Shown here in pieces: positions 1-16,673 of a stretch of DNA of 23,508 nucleotides. This stretch comes from a virus (Duplodnaviria; Heunggongvirae; Uroviricota; Caudoviricetes), in IMG/VR virus record IMGVR_UViG_2663763227_000016, one strand, 5' to 3'. A model generated the notes under the pieces. The model was not told where the DNA came from and made no database searches. It saw only the letters and a list, made by a program, of their open reading frames with translations. The translations under genes were made by a program, and so were the position numbers. Numbering within the stretch: the first letter of the stretch is position 1; each line of letters opens with the position of its first letter.

Positions 1-1131
1 TCAAATGACCAGTTTTTTCCATTCCTTACCGCGTGCGTCGTTGTAAATATCGGTCATTTTTTGATTCGAATGGCCTAGCAAAATTTTGGTATCAACCCCC
101 TGCTCTCTGAACAATCGCTCTGATAAAGATCTCTGCTCATGGAAAGAGGGAGGGGTGCCATTAGCACGCCAGTTGTAATCCACAGAATCCCGGGCTTTTT
201 TAAATGCAACGGTTAATGTTGCTGGCTTAACCATCCCGCCGCGCTTAGCTGTCCCTTTCGCGTGATGGTGGTGCAATAGCCACGGACTAAGAACGCAATC
301 GCGGCAGGATGACACCACATCATCTAGGGTGAGATTTAATTTATCGCAACGCAGAGCCAGAGGGATGGCAATCCGGGTTCCTGTTTTTTGCTGTTCGACA
401 TGAAGATAACCATCCCGGATATCCGAAAATTGCATTTTGCAAATATCTGAAAGGCGCTGGCCTGTCATCAGTGCCAGCAGCATACCGCGCTGTAAAAAGT
501 AACCATCCTTTTCCGCTGCGTTATAAATCATCATCCACTCATCAAAAGTCAGTCGCTGTCTTGATATCCGCACCTGCGGTTTTTTTGCCGATTCTGCAGG
601 GTTAAAGCCTGGCGGGACATCGCCCGTTTGCTGAGCTTCCCGGAAAACATCGATCAGTACTTTCCTGAAAATTTGTCCCATTCTGTTATGTCCTCTGGCC
701 TTGTACTCTTCCAGTACTGATACCACATCTTTTACGGTTATGGCATCTAACGGTCTGGTGCCAAAACGTTCATCAAATACCCTGAGAGGGGCCGCTTTCT
801 GTTTCAGCGTGTTGAGTTTGATCTCGCCGTTTTCATATCTTTCCTGTTGAATTTTTCTGTAATTATTCAGAAAAATGGTAACGGTTGATGAACCGCCGGT
901 ATCACTAATAATTTTCTCCTGCAGACTGAGCATTTGTTCCATTTGCTGCCGGGCAAGACGGCTGTTCGCTTCTGCTGCAATAGTTTCTGCCAGTTTCTGG
1001 TCAATACTGCCGAGACCGTGATTTTTGCCTGTTATGGGATGCCTGTAACGCCAGTAAACTTTGTTATTTCTTTTGTCAAAATACGGAGATAATCCCGGAA
1101 CATCGGTTTTATATTTTCGCGGGCGCGCCAT
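1..1131 (-). CDS. int: Phage integrase, tyrosine recombinase (complete; stop codon at 1-3)
   Basis: 376-aa ORF on the minus strand. Its C-terminus (HEQRSLSERLF...LLGHSNQKMTDIYNDARGKEWKKLVI) closely matches the lambda Int catalytic region as I recall it, including the tyrosine-containing motif. An overlapping Xis-like gene lies immediately upstream, as in lambdoid int-xis modules. Confidence 0.88.
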   Translation of the reverse strand: MARPRKYKTDVPGLSPYFDKRNNKVYWRYRHPITGKNHGLGSIDQKLAETIAAEANSRLARQQMEQMLSLQEKIISDTGGSSTVTIFLNNYRKIQQERYENGEIKLNTLKQKAAPLRVFDERFGTRPLDAITVKDVVSVLEEYKARGHNRMGQIFRKVLIDVFREAQQTGDVPPGFNPAESAKKPQVRISRQRLTFDEWMMIYNAAEKDGYFLQRGMLLALMTGQRLSDICKMQFSDIRDGYLHVEQQKTGTRIAIPLALRCDKLNLTLDDVVSSCRDCVLSPWLLHHHHAKGTAKRGGMVKPATLTVAFKKARDSVDYNWRANGTPPSFHEQRSLSERLFREQGVDTKILLGHSNQKMTDIYNDARGKEWKKLVI

Positions 1132-1421: not shown

Positions 1422-3893
1422 TTAAAAATCAGCCTGATTCGGGATCAGTTTTTGCCAGATAGCTGAAACGTATTTTGCCTGGTAACGGGCATCATCCAGC
1501 GCATTGTGGCGCTCACCTTCGAATGGGATAGCAGTTCTGGCATCGAAGTCTACGGCTTTCCCCAGCTCAACGATTGTGCGTACATCGCGATCGTTGCAGT
1601 AGCGCCACGGGCAGGGGATACCCTGTCGTTCGTATGAACGGCGCAAAATCGTGTTGTCGAAGTTGGCCCCATTACCCCAGACCTGAACAAAAAACTCACC
1701 GGAGTTTTCGTCGATAAATTCCCGCAATTGCAGTAGTGCATCATCTAACGGGATTTCATCGGTCATAATGGCAGACTGCGCTTCACGTGATTGCTTCAGC
1801 CACCATTTAATGACGTCACGATCAATGACTCCGCCAGCAGTATCCAGATCGATGGTCTTGCTAAATTCTGGTCCCATATCTCCGGTTTGCGGATCGAAAA
1901 ATATTGCGCCTATTGAGATAATCGGGGCATCGGGATTTTTTCCCATGGTTTCAAGGTCGATCATCAGATGAATCCCCGCTCTGCTGGTGGATGTGAGATT
2001 ATGATGACTGTTCGCCTTAATTAAGGGATCTGACGCCTCGCCAGTTTCACTATCGCTGGCATGATGCTGATTGCCGCCAGTGTTCTCCTTGTGCTGATGT
2101 GCAGTACCTTCCATTTCCTCCGGATCATTTTCCTGAACTTCAGGCTGATTCTCTTCATCGAATATTTCCTGGTATGTTGCGTCGCCCATCACCGCGCCAC
2201 AATCAGGGCAGTTGCCGCCGCCGGTCTGACCGCAGGCGGTGCAGACTTTTTCCGGTTCCTGTTGCGCCACTGGTTCAGGCTGTTTCGTTTCTGGCTCGTT
2301 TTGTAACGCATTTGGGCTGTTTTGTTCCGCTTTCTGGTCGTTCTGTTCCGTTTCTTGCTGGTTCTGGTTCACAGAATCGCGGGTTTCAATCCCCTTCACC
2401 CATTTCGGATCATTCGGGTCGCTAATCCCTGCAACAAATTCACCACGTGATGCGGCGAGCAACTGATTGGCGTCAGGCTGGCTGATATTGGCTGCCTGCA
2501 TAATTTTCTTTACTTCGTCAGCGGTAACTTTTACCGGTTCTGGTTGTTCAGAATTTTGTGCGGTATTTGCATTTTGCGGTAAGCCTGTGTATGTGCCATT
2601 TTTTCGGGCAAAATATTCTTCTTTTGTGATTTCAGTAGCCCCGGCAGCCAGCGCCTTATCCAGACCAGAAAGTTTGTTTGCGCGACCGTATTTTTCGCAA
2701 TCCTTGTCGGTGAAGAAGAAGTAGAACGGCCCCTCACGCTCTACAGATGGTTCGACTTCCACTTTGCATTCGGTTTTTTCGTTGTCCGGAATTGCCGTTT
2801 CCACTGCATCAGTTTCTGGTACTGGCGACGAGAGAGTGTCAGTTGCGCTCTGATTTGTTCCTTCATCTTCAAACACGCCCTTTGTAGTCAGGTATTCAGT
2901 AATGTATTTGTTCAGTGCCACAGGGTCTTTGTGAATGTCGATCGGACGTTCACGGACAAGGCCAAAAATAGTCTGGCGGTCGTAGCGAAGGGCATCAGGC
3001 TGTTTGCGCATTGATGCCGAGATACGCTTCCAGTCTTCGCGGTCGTTGTCGATAACTTCATTTTTTGCCCAGCGATGGATGCTGCCGTCAATGTTTCCGG
3101 CATCCACATCACCAGGCCAGAGAGCGTAGGCCAGTTCGTCATCCAGTGTTTTCCATGTCTGCTTATATTCGCGACGAATGACTGCAGTGACAGGGGGGAT
3201 TTTTTCTGCTGAGTTTTCAGTGTGCTGTCGGTGGACTCTGGCGCGGGCGAGATCAACAACAGACGTGTATTTTCCGGTTTCCTTGCGTTCACCTTCGCGA
3301 CGTTTTTTCCAGATGCGCATCTCTGCCTGAATTTCGGGCCATTTGGCACCAGGCTTACATTTATGCTTAACCCACCCGATGGCATGCAGCTTAAGCTCCG
3401 GATACATGGCGTTAACTTCTGGCATTTTCATCAACGCTTCAACGATATGTCCGTCGAATGTTGCCATGTCTTCCTGCAACAATTCCTGCGCGCTAATCAC
3501 CATATCAACGGTGATGTTTTCACATGTGTCGAACTTAACCATGACAGCGTTCTGTACTTCAGGGGCCAGCTTGTCAAAAGCGACGTTCATCGGATCTGAT
3601 TCAGTCTCAACCGGGACAAAGGAAGTAGCCCCCTCATCCCAGCGGTTTTCCTGCATATATTCAGCATCCCATGAATCGAGGGCAGGGCGGGGTATACCGG
3701 GTTTATCCTCGCAAACAAGAAATTTATAAGCGCAGTCCTGAGCAGCCGGATAATGCTCCAGGAATTGCCAGTGAAATTTTGCGCGGGCGCGACGTTCATC
3801 ACCGGCTTCAATGGCAGTGGCTACAGCGACTGCACCTTCTTCCTTTATTGCCTGTTCGTCCGGAATGGCGGCGCAAATAAAGACTTTACTCAT
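1422..3893 (-). CDS. Large phage exonuclease with a C-terminal DnaQ-like (DEDDh) 3'-5' exonuclease domain
   Basis: 823-aa ORF with GAGG ribosome-binding site 9 nt upstream of the ATG at 3893. The C-terminal third carries Exo I/II/III-like motifs (MIDLETMG, WGNGANFDNTIL, HNALDDARYQAKY). A central acidic Q/E/N/P-rich linker contains a CxxC...CxxC element. K-12 ydfE is probably an N-terminal fragment of this family. Confidence 0.75.
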   Translation of the reverse strand: MSKVFICAAIPDEQAIKEEGAVAVATAIEAGDERRARAKFHWQFLEHYPAAQDCAYKFLVCEDKPGIPRPALDSWDAEYMQENRWDEGATSFVPVETESDPMNVAFDKLAPEVQNAVMVKFDTCENITVDMVISAQELLQEDMATFDGHIVEALMKMPEVNAMYPELKLHAIGWVKHKCKPGAKWPEIQAEMRIWKKRREGERKETGKYTSVVDLARARVHRQHTENSAEKIPPVTAVIRREYKQTWKTLDDELAYALWPGDVDAGNIDGSIHRWAKNEVIDNDREDWKRISASMRKQPDALRYDRQTIFGLVRERPIDIHKDPVALNKYITEYLTTKGVFEDEGTNQSATDTLSSPVPETDAVETAIPDNEKTECKVEVEPSVEREGPFYFFFTDKDCEKYGRANKLSGLDKALAAGATEITKEEYFARKNGTYTGLPQNANTAQNSEQPEPVKVTADEVKKIMQAANISQPDANQLLAASRGEFVAGISDPNDPKWVKGIETRDSVNQNQQETEQNDQKAEQNSPNALQNEPETKQPEPVAQQEPEKVCTACGQTGGGNCPDCGAVMGDATYQEIFDEENQPEVQENDPEEMEGTAHQHKENTGGNQHHASDSETGEASDPLIKANSHHNLTSTSRAGIHLMIDLETMGKNPDAPIISIGAIFFDPQTGDMGPEFSKTIDLDTAGGVIDRDVIKWWLKQSREAQSAIMTDEIPLDDALLQLREFIDENSGEFFVQVWGNGANFDNTILRRSYERQGIPCPWRYCNDRDVRTIVELGKAVDFDARTAIPFEGERHNALDDARYQAKYVSAIWQKLIPNQADF

Positions 3894-4528: not shown

Positions 4529-4586
4529 TTTAAAAAGGGTGGCAGAGCAGTCACGGAGTAGAACTGATGCCACCAAAGACTACACA
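4529..4586 (-). ncRNA. dicF: DicF small regulatory RNA (ftsZ-targeting), processed from the operon transcript
   Basis: The minus strand reads ...GTAGTCTTTGGTGGCATCAGTTCTACTCCGTGACTGCTCTGCCACCCTTTTTAAAG, nearly identical to my recollection of K-12 DicF. It has the long-range stem GGTGGCA/TGCCACC followed by a U-run. Ends are approximate (+/-5 nt). Confidence 0.8.
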
Positions 4587-4911
4587 TGGATATTGTGGCG
4601 GGGCTGTCACTTAAGCGTATGGTCAGCCTGACAACCCGGTGTCCTCAAGGGGAAGGAATAACCCCGCCATACTTACCGCCGCGCCATTTCGCGGATTGCC
4701 ACAACCGGAAGCGCACGGTCGAATTAAATTTAACGACAAAGTACAGAGAGACGAGCTTCTCCGTGTGCTTTCGCGTTATGCTCTGACTTTTCAGAGAAAT
4801 ATCCTTTCAGTAAACTGTCAGTGCCGGATGTTCACCCGTGTCCGGCGCACGCACTCCACTTCACCCGTGGAGAACTCCTTAATTACCAACCTTAGCTTCG
4901 TTGGTTAGCTA

Positions 4912-10846: not shown

Positions 10847-11083
10847 TTTTATGGATCACCTTTCTGATTGATTTCATATTGGCGAGGTGACGTGAGTTAA
10901 GTAGAATGGCTGCGGGTGCTTGAGGCTATCTGTCTCAGGCATGAACACTGAAAGGCAGATAGAGAAAAGCCCCAGTTAACATTTCGCGTCCTGCAAGACG
11001 CTTAACATTAATCTGAGGCCCAATCTATGTCTCACAAATGTAGGTTAGCCTCTTACGTGCCGAAAGGCAAGGGGAAGCAGGCT

Positions 11084-11239
11084 ATGAAGCAGCAAAAGGC
11101 GATGTTAATCGCCCTGATCGTCATCTGTTTAACCGTCATAGTGACGGCACTGGTAACGAGGAAAGACCTCTGCGAGGTACGACTCCGAACCGGCCAGACG
11201 GAGGTCGCTGTCTTCACAGCTTACGAACCTGAGGAGTAA
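11084..11239 (+). CDS. hokD: Hok/Gef-family type I toxin (HokD/RelF-like)
   Basis: 51-aa ORF MKQQKAMLIALIVICLTVIVTALVTRKDLCEVRLRTGQTEVAVFTAYEPEE, near-identical to Gef/RelF as I recall them. GGGGAAG ribosome-binding site; an in-frame upstream extension (from 11027) resembles a mok-type leader. Confidence 0.85.
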   Translation: MKQQKAMLIALIVICLTVIVTALVTRKDLCEVRLRTGQTEVAVFTAYEPEE

Positions 11240-12736: not shown

Positions 12737-13102
12737 ATGACTGAACGCATAGAATTTGTTTTGCCTTACCCGCCAACGGTGAACACTTACTGGCGACGTC
12801 GTGGCAGCACATATTTTGTATCAAAAGTCGGTGAGCGTTATCGCCGTGATGTGGCGCTTATTGTTCGCCAGCAGCAACTGAAATTAAACCTGTCCGGAAG
12901 GCCGGCAATAGAAATTATTGCAGAGCCACCGGATAAGCGCCGTCGTGACCTGGACAATATCCTGAAGGCACCACTGGATGTACTGACGCATGCGGGGCTG
13001 CTCATAGACGACGAGCAGTTTGATGAAATTAATATTGTGCGCGGTCAGCTTGTTCCTGGTGGGCGGTTGGGGATAAAAATCACAGAACTGGAGTACGCAT
13101 GA
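12737..13102 (+). CDS. rusA: Holliday junction resolvase RusA
   Basis: 121-aa ORF containing YPPTVNTYW...RRRDLDNILKAPLDVLTHAGLLIDDEQ...GGRLGIKITELE, closely matching RusA as I recall it. Confidence 0.9.
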   Translation: MTERIEFVLPYPPTVNTYWRRRGSTYFVSKVGERYRRDVALIVRQQQLKLNLSGRPAIEIIAEPPDKRRRDLDNILKAPLDVLTHAGLLIDDEQFDEINIVRGQLVPGGRLGIKITELEYA

Positions 13103-13788
13103 ATAACCAGTATTTACAGTTTGTTCGTGAGCAACTCATGATTGCCACCGCCGATTTGAGTGGATCAACAAAAGGGCAGCTTGAGGCCTGGCAGGAGAAT
13201 GCCATGTTTGATACAGGGCGTTACAGGCGTAAAAAAATCCGGTACCGCGATGAAGTGACTGGAAAAATGATAACGCGGGATAATCCACCAATCCCGGGAA
13301 AGCAATCGCTGGCGAAGGGGGTGTCAATTCCTCTCGTCAGTCCGGTTGAGTTTTCGACATCATCGTGGCGGCGGGCTGTTCTGTCTCTTGAAGAACATCA
13401 TAAAGCCTGGTTGTTGTGGTGTTACAGCGGGAGTATTTGTTGGGAATATCAGATCGCGATAACGCAGTGGGTGTGGAATGAATTTAAAACCCGGTACGGC
13501 ACCAGAAAAATTGCAGGGAAAACGCAGGAGCGCGTGAAGAAGTTGATCTGGCTGGCGGCACAGGATGTCAGAGGATGGATTACCGGGTGTGAGGTCTACC
13601 AGAGACAGGAGCTTGCCAGACTGTGTGGAGTTAAGCCTGATAACTGGAGCCATAATTATGCGAACTACTGGCGTGAGATGTGCGATATTTTTAAGAGTCT
13701 CGATAGAGAATCTGTGATTTGCACCGTGAAAATAAGAGCGCAACAAAAAGCGACTTTTTCACGACGAGATATTGCAAAAGTCAATTAA
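13099..13788 (+). CDS. Putative late-gene antiterminator (Q-like), by position
   Basis: 229-aa ORF overlapping the rusA stop (ATGA), the last gene before a promoter-like TATAAAT box and a strong terminator. I could not match it to lambda Q by sequence. Confidence 0.4.
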   Translation: MNNQYLQFVREQLMIATADLSGSTKGQLEAWQENAMFDTGRYRRKKIRYRDEVTGKMITRDNPPIPGKQSLAKGVSIPLVSPVEFSTSSWRRAVLSLEEHHKAWLLWCYSGSICWEYQIAITQWVWNEFKTRYGTRKIAGKTQERVKKLIWLAAQDVRGWITGCEVYQRQELARLCGVKPDNWSHNYANYWREMCDIFKSLDRESVICTVKIRAQQKATFSRRDIAKVN

Positions 13789-13849
13789 ATAGCGTACGTT
13801 TCGTATAAATCTGATATTTTGCCGATTTTGTACGCGATGGCAAAGTAAG

Positions 13850-13882
13850 AAAAAAAACTGCCGTCAGGCGGTTTTTTTTTAT
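13850..13882 (+). terminator. Intrinsic terminator (tR'-like) downstream of the Q-like gene
   Basis: A8-CTGCC-GTCA-GGCGG-T9: a short GC stem flanked by an A-run and a T-run, so potentially bidirectional. Confidence 0.65.
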
Positions 13883-14002
13883 GCCCAAAATCGCGTCAGT
13901 ACAGTAAACACGCTGGTGGTTGCGAATACGGGTCTTTCAGCTTGCTGGCTTTTTCGACAAGAGTTATTGGTATGTCACGTTAACCGGAAAAAGGAAAAAG
14001 AC

Positions 14003-14200
14003 ATGCTAAAACAGCAGGATATGACAGAAACCGCCAGAGTGGTGTTTAATGAATTAAGCGTTACCGAACCGGCGACAGTCGGGGAGATAGCGCAGAATAC
14101 TTACCTTTCACGCGAACGCTGCCAGTTAATACTGACTCAGCTGGTTATGGCGGGTCTGGCAGACTATCAGTTCGGTTGTTACAGACGCCTTCCGCAGTGA
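14003..14200 (+). CDS. Small hypothetical protein, possibly winged-helix, upstream of the methyltransferase
   Basis: 65-aa ORF MLKQQDMTETARVVFNELSVTEPATVGEIAQNTYLSRERCQLILTQLVMAGLADYQ... with AAGGAAAAAG upstream of the ATG. Confidence 0.45.
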   Translation: MLKQQDMTETARVVFNELSVTEPATVGEIAQNTYLSRERCQLILTQLVMAGLADYQFGCYRRLPQ

Positions 14201-14350
14201 AGGCTTTTTTATTTGTGGTAAATGGGCGGCTGGTGGGTGTTAGGGGCACTTACCAGCCATCTGCTCATGCGTTGGGTTCACAAGCAAACCTCAGGCCCAC
14301 TGCTTTGCGCAAAAGCAGAATGAGCCTATCAGAGACAGGCTTAATGATCC

Positions 14351-15400
14351 ATGCTTAATACTGTAAAAATATCCAGTTGTGAGTTAATCAACGCCGACTG
14401 CCTGGAATTTATCCGGTCGTTACCCGAAAATTCTGTTGACCTGATAGTCACGGACCCGCCGTACTTTAAAGTGAAGCCTGAGGGCTGGGATAACCAGTGG
14501 AAGGGCGACGATGATTACCTGAAGTGGCTGGACCAGTGTCTGGCGCAGTTCTGGCGGGTGCTGAAACCTGTCGGAAGTCTTTACCTGTTCTGTGGTCATC
14601 GCCTGGCATCTGATATCGAAATCATGATGCGTGAACGCTTCAGTGTGCTGAACCATATTATCTGGGCGAAGCCGTCCGGACGCTGGAACGGATGCAACAA
14701 GGAAAGCCTGCGGGCGTATTTCCCCGCCACAGAGCGCATTCTGTTCGCGGAACATTATCAGGGGCCGTATCGTCCGAAAGATGCCGGGTATGCGGCGAAG
14801 GGCAGTGCACTGAAACAGCATGTGATGGCCCCGCTGATTTCTTACTTTCGTGATGCGCGCGCTGCCCTGGGGATAACGGCAAAACAGATTGCAGATGCCA
14901 CAGGAAAGAAAAACATGGTGTCGCACTGGTTCAGTGCCAGTCAGTGGCAGCTACCGAACGAAAGCGATTATCTGAAATTACAGTCGCTGTTTGCCCGGGT
15001 GGCAGAAGAGAAACATCAGCGCGGTGAACTGGAAAAGCCCCACCACCAGCTGGTGGATACGTATACGTCACTGAACCGGCAGTATGTGGAGCTGCAGAGT
15101 GAATATAAGCATCTGCGGCGGTATTTTGGTGTGACGGCGCAGGTGCCGTACACGGATGTGTGGACACATAAACCGGTGCAGTTCTATCCCGGGAAACATC
15201 CGTGCGAAAAACCGGCAGAAATGCTGCAGCAGATAATCAGCGCAAGCAGTCGTCCGGGTGACCTGGTTGCAGATTTTTTTATGGGCTCAGGTTCAACGGT
15301 AAAAGTGGCACTGGCGCTCGGGCGTCGTGCGATTGGCGTTGAACTGGAGACCGGACGTTTTGAGCAGACAGTCAGGGAAGTTCAGGATTTAATCGTTTGA
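14351..15400 (+). CDS. DNA methyltransferase, beta-class amino-methyltransferase (N6-adenine or N4-cytosine), no restriction partner
   Basis: 349-aa ORF with the catalytic DPPY motif (LIVTDPPYF) near the N-terminus and the AdoMet-binding FxGxG motif (DFFMGSGST) near the C-terminus, the beta-class order. No endonuclease gene is adjacent. Confidence 0.85.
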   Translation: MLNTVKISSCELINADCLEFIRSLPENSVDLIVTDPPYFKVKPEGWDNQWKGDDDYLKWLDQCLAQFWRVLKPVGSLYLFCGHRLASDIEIMMRERFSVLNHIIWAKPSGRWNGCNKESLRAYFPATERILFAEHYQGPYRPKDAGYAAKGSALKQHVMAPLISYFRDARAALGITAKQIADATGKKNMVSHWFSASQWQLPNESDYLKLQSLFARVAEEKHQRGELEKPHHQLVDTYTSLNRQYVELQSEYKHLRRYFGVTAQVPYTDVWTHKPVQFYPGKHPCEKPAEMLQQIISASSRPGDLVADFFMGSGSTVKVALALGRRAIGVELETGRFEQTVREVQDLIV

Positions 15401-15449: not shown

Positions 15450-15525
15450 GGCCCTTTAGCTCAGTGGTGAGAGCGAGCGACTCATAATCGCCAGGTCGCT
15501 GGTTCAAATCCAGCAAGGGCCACCA
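15450..15525 (+). tRNA. tRNA with CAU anticodon (Ile2-lysidine type or Met; ileZ-like)
   Basis: Manual cloverleaf: acceptor GGCCCTT/AAGGGCC, D-arm GCTC-AGTGGTGA-GAGC, anticodon loop CTCATAA, T-arm GCTGG-TTCAAAT-CCAGC, encoded CCA. Confidence 0.85.
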
Positions 15526-15532
15526 TCACATA

Positions 15533-15609
15533 CCGCCATTAGCTCATCAGGAAAGAGCGCCAGCTTTCGAAGCTGGTTGCGCGGAGTTCGGGTCCCCGAA
15601 GGCGGTCCA
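15533..15609 (+). tRNA. Possible tRNA-Arg (anticodon UCG), degenerate or pseudo-tRNA
   Basis: Manual fold: D-arm GCTC-ATCAGGAAA-GAGC, perfect anticodon stem CCAGC/GCTGG with loop TTTCGAA, encoded CCA. It has mismatches in the acceptor and T stems, a non-canonical T-loop (TTCGGGT) and starts with C. Confidence 0.45.
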
Positions 15610-15622
15610 TTATCTGTATCCT

Positions 15623-15699
15623 GCGTTGTTAGCTCAGCCGGACAGAGCAATTGCCTTCTAAGCAATCGGTCACTGGTTCGAATCCAGTACAACGCGCCA
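15623..15699 (+). tRNA. tRNA-Arg (anticodon UCU, reads AGA)
   Basis: Canonical cloverleaf: acceptor GCGTTGT/ACAACGC, D-arm GCTC-AGCCGGACA-GAGC, anticodon stem ATTGC/GCAAT with loop CTTCTAA, T-arm ACTGG-TTCGAAT-CCAGT, encoded CCA. Confidence 0.9.
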
Positions 15700-15743: not shown

Positions 15744-15958
15744 CTCACAATTCAGGCGGTTGACTGTTGTCTGGTTTGCGGGGAGTTTGTTAAAAGAAAC
15801 TGGCATGGTGAATCCCCCTGTGCGGAGGGGCAATCAGCGAGTAGGTATATGGGATAATCGCGGATTCAGGTGCTGGTACTGAATTCACCGGGAGGCACCC
15901 GGCACCATGCAATGGCACATAGCGCCACTCTCCAGCCCCTCTCCGGAGGGGCTTTTCT
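15744..15958 (+). repeat. Structured non-coding module, copy A (TTGACT box, two hairpins, terminator-like GCCCCTC-TCCG-GAGGGGC-TTTT)
   Basis: Shares with copy B, at a 468-bp offset, the blocks CTCACAATTCAG, CATGGTGAATCCCCCTG.GCGGAGGGGC, CACCGGGAGGCACCCGGCACCATG and CCCCTCTCCGGAGGGGCTTT. Confidence 0.6.
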
Positions 15959-16147
15959 GTGCCGGATACATCACAGTTTCTGGAACCTTAGGTACTACAG
16001 TATCAGTCAGGGTGCTATATTTTCAGATGTGATGAAAGCCTGTCAGCAGGCAGGGCGTATCGGAAATGACCCAGTAGAGAAAACGTTGACTCAGATACCG
16101 GTGCTGAGTTACCGGGAAACCGGCATCACATGACCGCTATCCTTCCA

Positions 16148-16211: not shown

Positions 16212-16444
16212 CTCACAATTCAGTAAGTTGACAGTTGCCTGTCAGACTGGGCATTTGTTAAAAAAATTTCGCATGGTGAATCCCCCTGAGCGGAGGGGCG
16301 ACTGGTGACGGTATAATCTCTGATTATCAAAACGAGAATGACGCGGGTTTAGTGGCACCGGGCTGAACTCACCGGGAGGCACCCGGCACCATGTGCATGA
16401 TGATACAGATACGCGGCTTTAGCCCCTCTCCGGAGGGGCTTTCT
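16212..16444 (+). repeat. Structured non-coding module, copy B (TTGACA box, GGTATAAT, hairpins, terminator-like hairpin)
   Basis: Diverged tandem copy of module A. It contains TTGACA (16229-16234) and a consensus-like TATAAT (16309-16314). Confidence 0.6.
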
Positions 16445-16673
16445 TATGGACAAAAAAAGCCCGCGCTGGGAGACGCGGGCGGCAAGGAATAAACAATAAA
16501 ACGTGAAGTAATATTTCAGCTGGCGAATAATACCCCATAGTAATCACTCTGCGCAACTGCGCGGTCTTTTTCGAATTGCGGGCTGTAGTCTCCCTTCTGC
16601 CATTGTCCTGTAACTTCCGGACTTCAGCCTGCTCCTTATCTGACTCACAACATTATCCCGCCCGGGAGGATTC

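Follow-up and report, generated by a model that had tools for sequence, protein, structure and literature searches.

A structured RNA and a small winged-helix gene conserved beside an M.EcoGII-family DNA methyltransferase in a lambdoid prophage

INTRODUCTION

The DNA methyltransferase M.EcoGII is a common reagent in chromatin and RNA mapping and has become a textbook ‘Trojan-horse’ anti-restriction methylase. It methylates adenine whatever the context, stays silent in its lysogen and does harm when expressed (PMC5778455). Reconstructed ancestors of its family also methylate without sequence specificity (PMC11551740), so that non-specificity is a property of the family and not of one allele. 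For a homologue in an ST131 strain, reverse transcription PCR (RT-PCR) gave no transcript (PMC4659465), and O111 lysogens showed no methylation motif from theirs (PMC6602927), the homologues in both kinds of strain being annotated as non-specific. The silence and toxicity of such methylases are also covered in a review that explicitly pairs M.EcoGII with Mom of phage Mu (PMC12707154). How phages keep so toxic a methylase under control had not previously been described, and our literature search found nothing on the regulation of M.EcoGII-type genes. Here, we examine a gene of this family, together with the small open reading frame (ORF) and the spacer that precede it, in a 23,508-nt stretch of a Caudoviricetes genome (IMG/VR record IMGVR_UViG_2663763227_000016), which is referred to in its full length as the window.

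M.EcoGII and M.EcoGI, both from prophages of Escherichia coli O104:H4, and the homologue of phage 1720a-02, which Murray et al. named as very similar to M.EcoGII (PMC5778455), share with the window enzyme the length of 349 aa, the beta-class motif order, a nearly identical target-recognition region, about 94–95% overall identity and the prophage late-region context. The 1720a-02 locus also has the same small ORF and RNA element as the window, neither of which is described in the published work on M.EcoGII. The methylase part of the locus is therefore already known. The new part is a structured RNA in the spacer, widely conserved and apparently undescribed, and a conserved partner protein belonging to the PHROG family phrog_331. 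An initial annotation of the window, made from the sequence alone, had proposed a solitary methylase with a possible controller upstream and had missed this RNA, which is the most conserved feature of the locus.

Other described systems resemble the locus in part. Phage Mu com-mom also consists of a toxic DNA-modification enzyme of a temperate phage, silent in lysogens, that is preceded by a small regulatory gene and an RNA structure. The window differs from it in that its small protein is a winged helix and not a zinc ribbon, its RNA is a three-way junction of about 100 nt, probably on the opposite strand, whereas that of Mu is a single hairpin, and its enzyme is a methyltransferase whereas Mom is an acetamido-transferase. 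Cis-antisense systems such as hok/sok, symE/symR, P22 sar and lambda OOP share with the window a structured RNA, here a candidate, opposite the 5' untranslated region (UTR) of a gene that is harmful if expressed at the wrong time. In contrast to them, the RNA of the window, a predicted regulator, does not cover the start codon, and it matches none of such families held in Rfam. In restriction-modification (R-M) systems, controller (C) proteins are Xre-type helix-turn-helix (HTH) dimers that time the expression of the restriction enzyme through C-boxes. As in those systems, a small protein with a DNA-binding fold is encoded just upstream of the methyltransferase gene in the window, yet the window lacks a restriction gene and the fold is a winged helix.

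RESULTS AND DISCUSSION

A structured RNA in the spacer before the methylase gene

The stretch from the small ORF's stop codon to the methylase ATG contains a structured RNA element with four helices, in which P0 closes a three-way junction with P1 and P2 (Table 1). Blocks of this spacer are nearly invariant even in loci where the small protein is 37–41% identical, and the element is 75–84% identical at the nucleotide level in comparisons that find both flanking genes saturated at their synonymous sites. Judged from these alignments, no part of the locus is more conserved than the spacer. It is non-coding, because its indels are not multiples of three. Two ORFs of 33 and 60 aa within it were accordingly rejected, as the spacer lengths of 147–154 nt differ by non-multiples of three and the frames are not kept.

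A covariance model trained with 34 sequences and covering the four helices found a single site in each of 71 loci, always beside the methylase operon, and it also matched upstream of ORF17 in Vibrio phage VHML (53 bits). In the alignment of the element, 87.1% of the cells at paired positions can pair, compared with 75.3 ± 0.4% in shuffles, and 28 out of 35 pairs change on both sides, compared with 17.8 ± 1.8 in shuffles. The covariation score is 0.302 versus 0.107, with controls using slid partners at or below 0.066. Because this first alignment was fitted to the model, covariation was recounted for the closer set on a MAFFT alignment made from sequence alone, which gave 0.135 versus 0.078 ± 0.005, above all controls. 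These counts show that the RNA structure is supported by covariation.

When the window element was searched against Rfam 15 with a permissive threshold (E ≤ 10), no significant match was obtained, only one chance-level hit to P26 on the minus strand (E 2.5), and the element from seven diverse loci had no match at E ≤ 0.1. A known riboswitch, ribozyme or small RNA (sRNA), including leaders, c4 and sok, was rejected for lack of an Rfam match on the element. A literature search found no paper on an RNA element or sRNA at this position, and the element is apparently undescribed.

Hairpin P3 has a further property, as it is palindromic through its apex in 32 of the 34 distinct variants, with GCGC, TGCA, GTAC, TCGA or ACGT at the center. 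A centered palindrome of at least 8 nt was found in none of the 46 variants of P1 and none of the 49 variants of P2. The dyad of P3 suggests a DNA operator for a dimeric protein at the predicted antisense start, a kissing loop, or a by-product of templated mutation.

Table 1. Features of the methylase locus, with positions numbered on the window
Feature	Position	Strand	Basis or remark
Q antiterminator gene	13099..13788	+	PF06323 (Phage_antiter_Q), E 1.4e-83; defines the start of the late operon
tR'-like intrinsic terminator	13860..13881	+	Terminator scan and sequence; flanked by A-run and T-run, so potentially bidirectional
Conserved non-coding stretch	13925..14002	+	CTTGCTG-N16/17-CAGAGTTATYTGTATGTCAC, then Shine-Dalgarno; alignment of 27 species-level loci
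Small winged-helix protein, 65 aa, phrog_331	14003..14200	+	phrog_331, E 1.4e-37; AlphaFold2 fold; purifying selection
Terminator-like hairpin and U-run across the stop codon of the small ORF	14187..14214	+	Terminator scan; stem held by compensatory changes
Structured RNA core, ~100 nt	14219..14318	- (favored)	Covariance model, 121 bits; covariation; strand tests
Helix P0	14223-14227 with 14295-14299		Closes three-way junction with P1 and P2
Helix P1	14228-14239 with 14247-14258		
Helix P2	14260-14269 with 14279-14288		
Hairpin P3	14300-14306 with 14312-14318		Dyad-symmetric
Candidate extended -10 element	14323..14331	-	TGATAGGCT on the minus strand, AGCCTATCA on the plus strand; predicted
M.EcoGII-family beta-class N6-adenine DNA methyltransferase, 349 aa	14351..15400	+	PF01555; sequence identity

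Conservation of the cassette across phage lineages

A scan of Enterobacterales with one genome per species yielded 25 loci, and in 24 of them the small ORF, a spacer of 147–154 nt and the methylase occur together. The genera that carry this cassette include Kluyvera, Salmonella, Klebsiella, Citrobacter, Buttiauxella, Mixta, Erwinia, Rosenbergiella and Plesiomonas. Its flanks vary, with different Q families upstream and with HicAB or a holin replacing the tRNA genes downstream. More distant methylase classes were gathered by scanning viral contigs with the Plesiomonas enzyme. Upstream of these divergent methylases lies an ORF of 75–98 aa, a homologue of the window protein (hhalign probability 95.6%, E 1e-8), the one in locus L121 matching phrog_331 with an E-value of 3.5e-27, and a terminator hairpin is usually present between the small ORF and the spacer. 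Sequence comparison therefore presents the small ORF as a conserved partner of the methylase family in most, not all, of the divergent phage lineages sampled. The RNA element is the most constant partner of the methylase among these lineages.

The match in Vibrio phage VHML lies directly upstream of ORF17, an adenine methyltransferase that is 56% identical to the methylase of L121, a member of the family from a Klebsiella phage. VHML differs from the window in being a myovirus and not lambdoid, in having no phrog_331 gene adjacent, and in having a normal Shine-Dalgarno sequence before the ATG.

In six relatives (L155, L157, L159, L166, L175 and L179), an ORF of 40–41 aa with a CxxC...CxxC pattern is located directly upstream of the methylase (L155:1358-1483, L157:1362-1487 and L159:1358-1483, for example). 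The one that was scanned, from L155, matches phrog_6417, a ‘translational regulator’ and the PHROG of Mu Com, with an E-value of 3.3e-05. The RNA element is found upstream of the Com-like ORF in five of these loci, the exception being L179. A zinc-ribbon ORF of this type directly before the methylase is a likeness to Mu com-mom that only these relatives have, and its presence argues for layered control of the Com type within this methylase family, as in Mu mom.

Further relatives of the methylase have leaders of two unrelated types. One is conserved as GCCTTGAGTACCTGAGACCCAG...TTCAAGGCTCT, followed by a good Shine-Dalgarno sequence, and the other is G+C-rich and located after a terminator. The covariance model of the RNA had no match in either type, represented by L161, L164, L167, L174, L178 and L180, and by L148 and L150-L154. 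Two other loci have the methylase replaced by unrelated genes, with the small ORF accompanied by a complete RNA element in one (L104:2980-3302, 94 bits) and by a decayed element in the other (L012:2764-3355, 30 bits). Both are probably recombination remnants.

The strand that carries the RNA

The base pairs of the element are better satisfied on the minus strand, where 93.4% of the cells pair, than on the plus strand with its 87.1%. There are 204 A.C cells on the plus strand, corresponding to G.U on the minus strand, versus 64 G.U cells on the plus strand, and a conserved tandem C.A/A.C in P2 becomes a tandem G.U/U.G wobble on the minus strand. De novo consensus folding of 29 diverse sequences with RNAalifold gave -21.2 kcal/mol and 22 pairs for the minus strand, 9 of them with compensatory changes, versus -6.0 kcal/mol and 5 pairs for the plus strand. 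Folding of single sequences does not separate the strands (z -2.84 versus -2.82).

Close to P3 lies a plus-strand block that is invariant, AGCCTAnCA, whose minus-strand reading is TGnTAGGCT. The hexamer TAnnCT is present in 64 of 65 distinct sequences at a fixed 5–6 nt from P3, with TGn directly upstream of it in 57 of the 64 and with variation limited to hexamer positions 3–4. The TGnTAnnCT motif is conserved in the manner expected of an extended -10 element that would start a transcript at P3. A canonical minus-strand promoter in the 5' coding region of the methylase was also considered and rejected, as only weak 8/12 matches were found at inconsistent positions. Set against type I toxin-antitoxin and other cis-antisense loci, the element has the better minus-strand pairing and the conserved TGnTAnnCT, with a weak -35 region and terminator. 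We favor a minus-strand antisense RNA and keep a sense-strand leader as a serious rival. Both strands may matter, by analogy with classical cis-antisense pairs.

The methylase

The enzyme matches the N6_N4_Mtase domain (PF01555) over residues 29–340 with an E-value of 2.6e-44. Its DPPY motif (motif IV; residues 35–38, nt 14453–14464) is N-terminal to FMGSG, the FxGxG motif (motif I; residues 310–314, nt 15278–15292), and the motif order is therefore that of the beta class. Sequence matches in the PDB are RsrI, CcrM and MboIIA. Pfam searches found no restriction enzyme among the flanking genes, and the flanking proteins had no PADLOC match, which bears out the initial description of a solitary beta-class methyltransferase.

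Alignment with M.EcoGII gave 329 identities over 350 columns (~94%). The M.EcoGII sequence was taken from the PMC11551740 supplement, whose machine-read PDF text contains visible slips, and the true identity may therefore be slightly higher. The enzyme of phage 1720a-02 is identical at 330 of 348 positions (95%). About 20 substitutions separate the window allele from M.EcoGII, none of them in DPPY or FxGxG, and the window enzyme is predicted to be active. The close identity extends over the full length and includes the target-recognition domain, placing the enzyme in the M.EcoGII family. The initial annotation had stated that target specificity could not be read from the sequence and had proposed a homology search of the target-recognition region. 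That comparison proved informative: the region (residues ~160–237) is identical to M.EcoGII at 75 of 78 positions, with three differences, and this identity, together with the non-specific behavior of the family and of its reconstructed ancestors (PMC5778455, PMC11551740), points to essentially non-specific N6-adenine methylation.

From its place behind tR' and from its homologues, the window methylase is expected to be silent in the lysogen, and the published close homologues suggest that it would be toxic if expressed. Protection of phage DNA against host restriction, one of the two roles initially suggested, is the accepted role of this methylase family. The other, an epigenetic role in the lysogen, is unlikely, as close homologues are silent in lysogens (PMC5778455, PMC4659465, PMC6602927).

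The methylase itself is an already known, very common and ordinary gene. DNA of the locus was found in 2443 of 5426 complete E. coli genomes (45%), the median being two copies, and 48 phage records, most of them for Stx2 phages, also had it. It is also present in apparently defective E. coli prophages. The names given in databases, ‘site-specific DNA-methyltransferase (adenine-specific)’ for the methylase and ‘TrmB family transcriptional regulator’ for the small ORF, are both misleading here, and the present results correct this routine annotation.

The small winged-helix protein and its upstream region

The small ORF has a good Shine-Dalgarno sequence, AAGGA, eight nt 5' of its ATG. In comparisons with other genera, nonsynonymous divergence (pN) is 0.07–0.18 for the closer genera and 0.34–0.44 for the most distant, with synonymous divergence (pS) saturated at 0.64–0.88. 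Since pN is low while pS is saturated, the small protein is real. A 94-aa form starting from GTG at 13916, the first coordinate in the initial annotation, was rejected as not conserved, the Klebsiella orthologue having an in-frame TAA five codons before the ATG. The AlphaFold2 model has a canonical winged-helix topology (predicted local distance difference test score, pLDDT, of 93), in agreement with the winged helix first proposed for this ORF.

Assignment to a described family was less productive. Every match in the Pfam scan was under its cut-off and HTH_3 was not matched. The best match, TrmB (PF01978), scored 18.0 bits versus a cut-off of 25.6 bits, which places the protein outside that family. 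A fold search of the PDB was rejected as a means of assignment, the only matches being MarR/OhrR, IclR, N-terminal domains of O-methyltransferases, and SelB. The zinc ribbon of Mu Com is not present in the window ORF. The protein family is narrow, with 61 cluster representatives, many of them fragments, among 1.84 billion, and phrog_331 is annotated in PHROG as ‘function unknown’. The initial suggestion that the small protein is a controller holds as far as a functional link to the methylase is concerned, given the conserved synteny in most sampled lineages. It does not hold in the sense of an R-M C-protein, as a restriction gene is absent and the protein is a winged helix and not Xre/HTH_3.

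In 79 of 80 E. coli loci from IMG/VR (L002-L081), the small ORF is 100% identical, and the adjacent methylase is 84.7–99.7% identical. At the sequence level this points to either a mosaic junction in or just before the methylase gene, or a much stronger constraint upstream.

About 75 nt before the small ORF are also kept across genera and have a promoter-like layout of CTTGCTG, a variable spacer of 16–17 nt and CAGAGTTATCTGTATGTCAC. A sigma-70 promoter at this place was rejected because no acceptable -10 element was found, and another between the terminator hairpin and the RNA element was rejected for lack of both an acceptable -10 and room. In the alignment, the stem of the terminator hairpin across the stop codon of the small ORF has the variants GCCTTC/GAAGGC, GCCTCC/GGGGGC, GCCTCC/GGAGGC and CTGTCG/CGGCAG in other genera.

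A proposed switch and its rivals

The methylase locus is at the very start of the Q-dependent late operon, just after Q and tR', and the lysis genes are downstream, as the initial annotation had placed it. Since unscheduled expression is toxic, extra control of the methylase is expected. We propose a three-part cassette in which a non-specific methylase is governed by late timing, an antisense-RNA lock and a winged-helix release factor. As an explanation of the whole locus, this has the balance of probability slightly on its side. The small protein and the RNA probably keep the toxic methylase off until phage induction. The more general proposal, that an undescribed structured-RNA family extending from Vibrio to E. 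coli phages forms, with the phrog_331 protein, a dedicated safety switch or antitoxin-like lock for M.EcoGII-family methyltransferases, is tentative, and we place it just short of probable.

The first layer of this cassette would be timing. The methylase lies behind Q, the tR' terminator and the second hairpin with its U-run, so that efficient transcription would be expected only from Q-modified polymerase after induction, and this dependence on Q for transcription past the terminators would account for the silence of homologues in lysogens. In the accepted view, late expression would hypermethylate the progeny DNA and let it escape many adenine-sensitive restriction systems in the next host. 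The second layer, suggested by the comparative evidence, would be a lock formed by the ~100-nt RNA between the small ORF and the methylase. This RNA would most likely come from the opposite strand, antisense to the methylase 5' UTR, with transcription from the candidate extended -10 promoter 20–28 nt upstream of the methylase ATG, and may act like a type I antitoxin or the sar RNA of P22. The key to the lock, more speculatively, could be the winged-helix protein, which would be translated first from the late transcript and might release the lock, for example by binding P3 at the start of the antisense RNA. The switch would gain further strength from strong Q-dependent sense transcription that runs over the antisense promoter. 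If this proposal is true, the conserved RNA and partner protein at the native locus make a concrete and testable regulatory circuit, a large PHROG of unknown function (phrog_331) gains a function, and a new candidate RNA family is present in nearly half of the complete E. coli genomes.

A number of observations weigh against this proposal. The candidate -10 (TAGGCT) is G+C-rich and matches TATAAT at three of six positions, the -35 region is weak and overlaps the methylase ATG, and a strong or convincing minus-strand terminator after the RNA was not found, with only 2–4 U following the last helix. Vibrio phage VHML has the RNA element without an adjoining phrog_331 gene. The small protein is slightly acidic, and its PDB fold matches are generic winged helices with a best E-value of 1e-3. 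Our literature search did not find published evidence for hypermethylated virion DNA of such phages, including Stx phages. For the enzyme, the M.EcoGII comparison uses the machine-read sequence noted above; an exact look-up of a hand-corrected M.EcoGII sequence in the sequence collection found none, so the ~94% figure rests on the supplement together with the 1720a-02 homologue. The remaining points concern the strand and are shared with the first of the rival explanations.

That explanation, distinctly less probable and yet to be taken seriously, is a sense-strand RNA, in which a structured 5' UTR of the methylase, protein-binding or riboswitch-like, would hide a weak start and be opened by a factor such as the winged-helix protein, as Com does on the mom mRNA. 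A sense leader would explain equally well that the element ends at a constant 22 nt before the start codon in many classes. The methylase ATG has no preceding Shine-Dalgarno sequence, the G.U pairs in P1 fit the plus strand, and in a single-sequence fold UGAUC, immediately 5' of the AUG, can pair with the loop of P2 (GGUCA). A further helix, P4, is possible on the plus strand; it changes register between classes and has a few compensatory variants (AGCCU/AGGCU, AGUCU/AGACU, GAGCA/UGCUU and GAGCG/CGCUU), and in the Com-class relatives the RNA element precedes the com-like ORF. However, the plus strand pairs more poorly, the C.A/A.C of P2 becoming G.U/U.G only on the minus strand, and its de novo consensus fold is much weaker. 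The pairing of the P2 loop involves invariant bases, so that covariation cannot test it, and no Rfam riboswitch or leader family was matched.

It is improbable that the methylase and its antisense RNA form an addiction module of the toxin-antitoxin kind, killing prophage-free cells instead of, or besides, protecting DNA. Such a module would suit an enzyme that is toxic when expressed (PMC5778455), a candidate antisense RNA complementary to its 5' UTR, and the abundance of the locus in E. coli, defective prophages included. However, sense transcription appears to need antitermination by Q, a stable toxin mRNA would be unexpected in lysogens, and RT-PCR detected no transcript (PMC4659465). An ordinary orphan methyltransferase with sequence specificity, perhaps epigenetic in the lysogen and with a C-protein-like controller upstream, was the initial reading and agrees with the database names of both genes. 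It is now very improbable, given 94–95% identity to characterized non-specific enzymes (PMC5778455), the silence of homologues in lysogens (PMC4659465, PMC6602927), the lack of a restriction gene, and a small protein that is not an HTH_3 C-protein and matches TrmB only under its cut-off. Least probable of all is that conservation of the small ORF and spacer is incidental, marking a boundary of recombination modules shared by lambdoid phages with no function tied to the methylase: the identical E. coli small ORF beside a varying methylase (85–99.7%) has the pattern of a mosaic junction, but the helices covary, conservation of the element persists at saturation of the synonymous sites, phage classes with unrelated flanks share the triad, and a Vibrio myovirus has the RNA element alone.

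Prophage context

The window comprises the left and central portions of a lambdoid prophage. Its genes are arranged in the order of an integrase (1-1131, minus strand), a cI-like repressor, a cro-like gene, replication genes, DUF968/HNH, RusA and Q, and the methylase locus is followed by three tRNA genes, a sialate-esterase-like gene, a P21-type holin, lysozyme, Rz and Nu1. Stx phages carry cargo genes at this place in the late operon, and the window has no stx gene there. The tRNA genes (15450-15699, plus strand) have the anticodons CAT, TCG (Arg) and TCT (Arg). The CAT tRNA is called Met by ARAGORN but Ile (ileZ) in the annotation of RefSeq homologues, and we take the cluster to be the ileZ-argN-argO set typical of Stx-type phages.

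STnc100, an Rfam family, occurs twice on the plus strand, at 15774-15964 and 16242-16451 (136 and 165 bits), each copy followed by terminator-like hairpins and both located between the tRNA genes and the esterase gene. In Stx phages, stxAB sits where these copies lie in the window. Convergent prophage sRNAs at this region were described by Tree et al. (PMC4104026). A weak full-length match to STnc370 (13845-13921, minus strand; 39.4 bits versus a cut-off of 54, E 5.6e-4) overlaps the terminator with its A-run and T-run after Q.

An 823-aa protein (1422-3893, minus strand) has a large N-terminal part without a match and a C-terminus that is an Rv2179c-like 3'-5' exoribonuclease domain of the DEDDh type (E 2.1e-65). 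DicF RNA is found in the early-left region, at 4537-4588 on the minus strand (61 bits). A sok antitoxin RNA at 10914-11089 on the plus strand (120 bits) implies a hok/sok-type module in the nin region.

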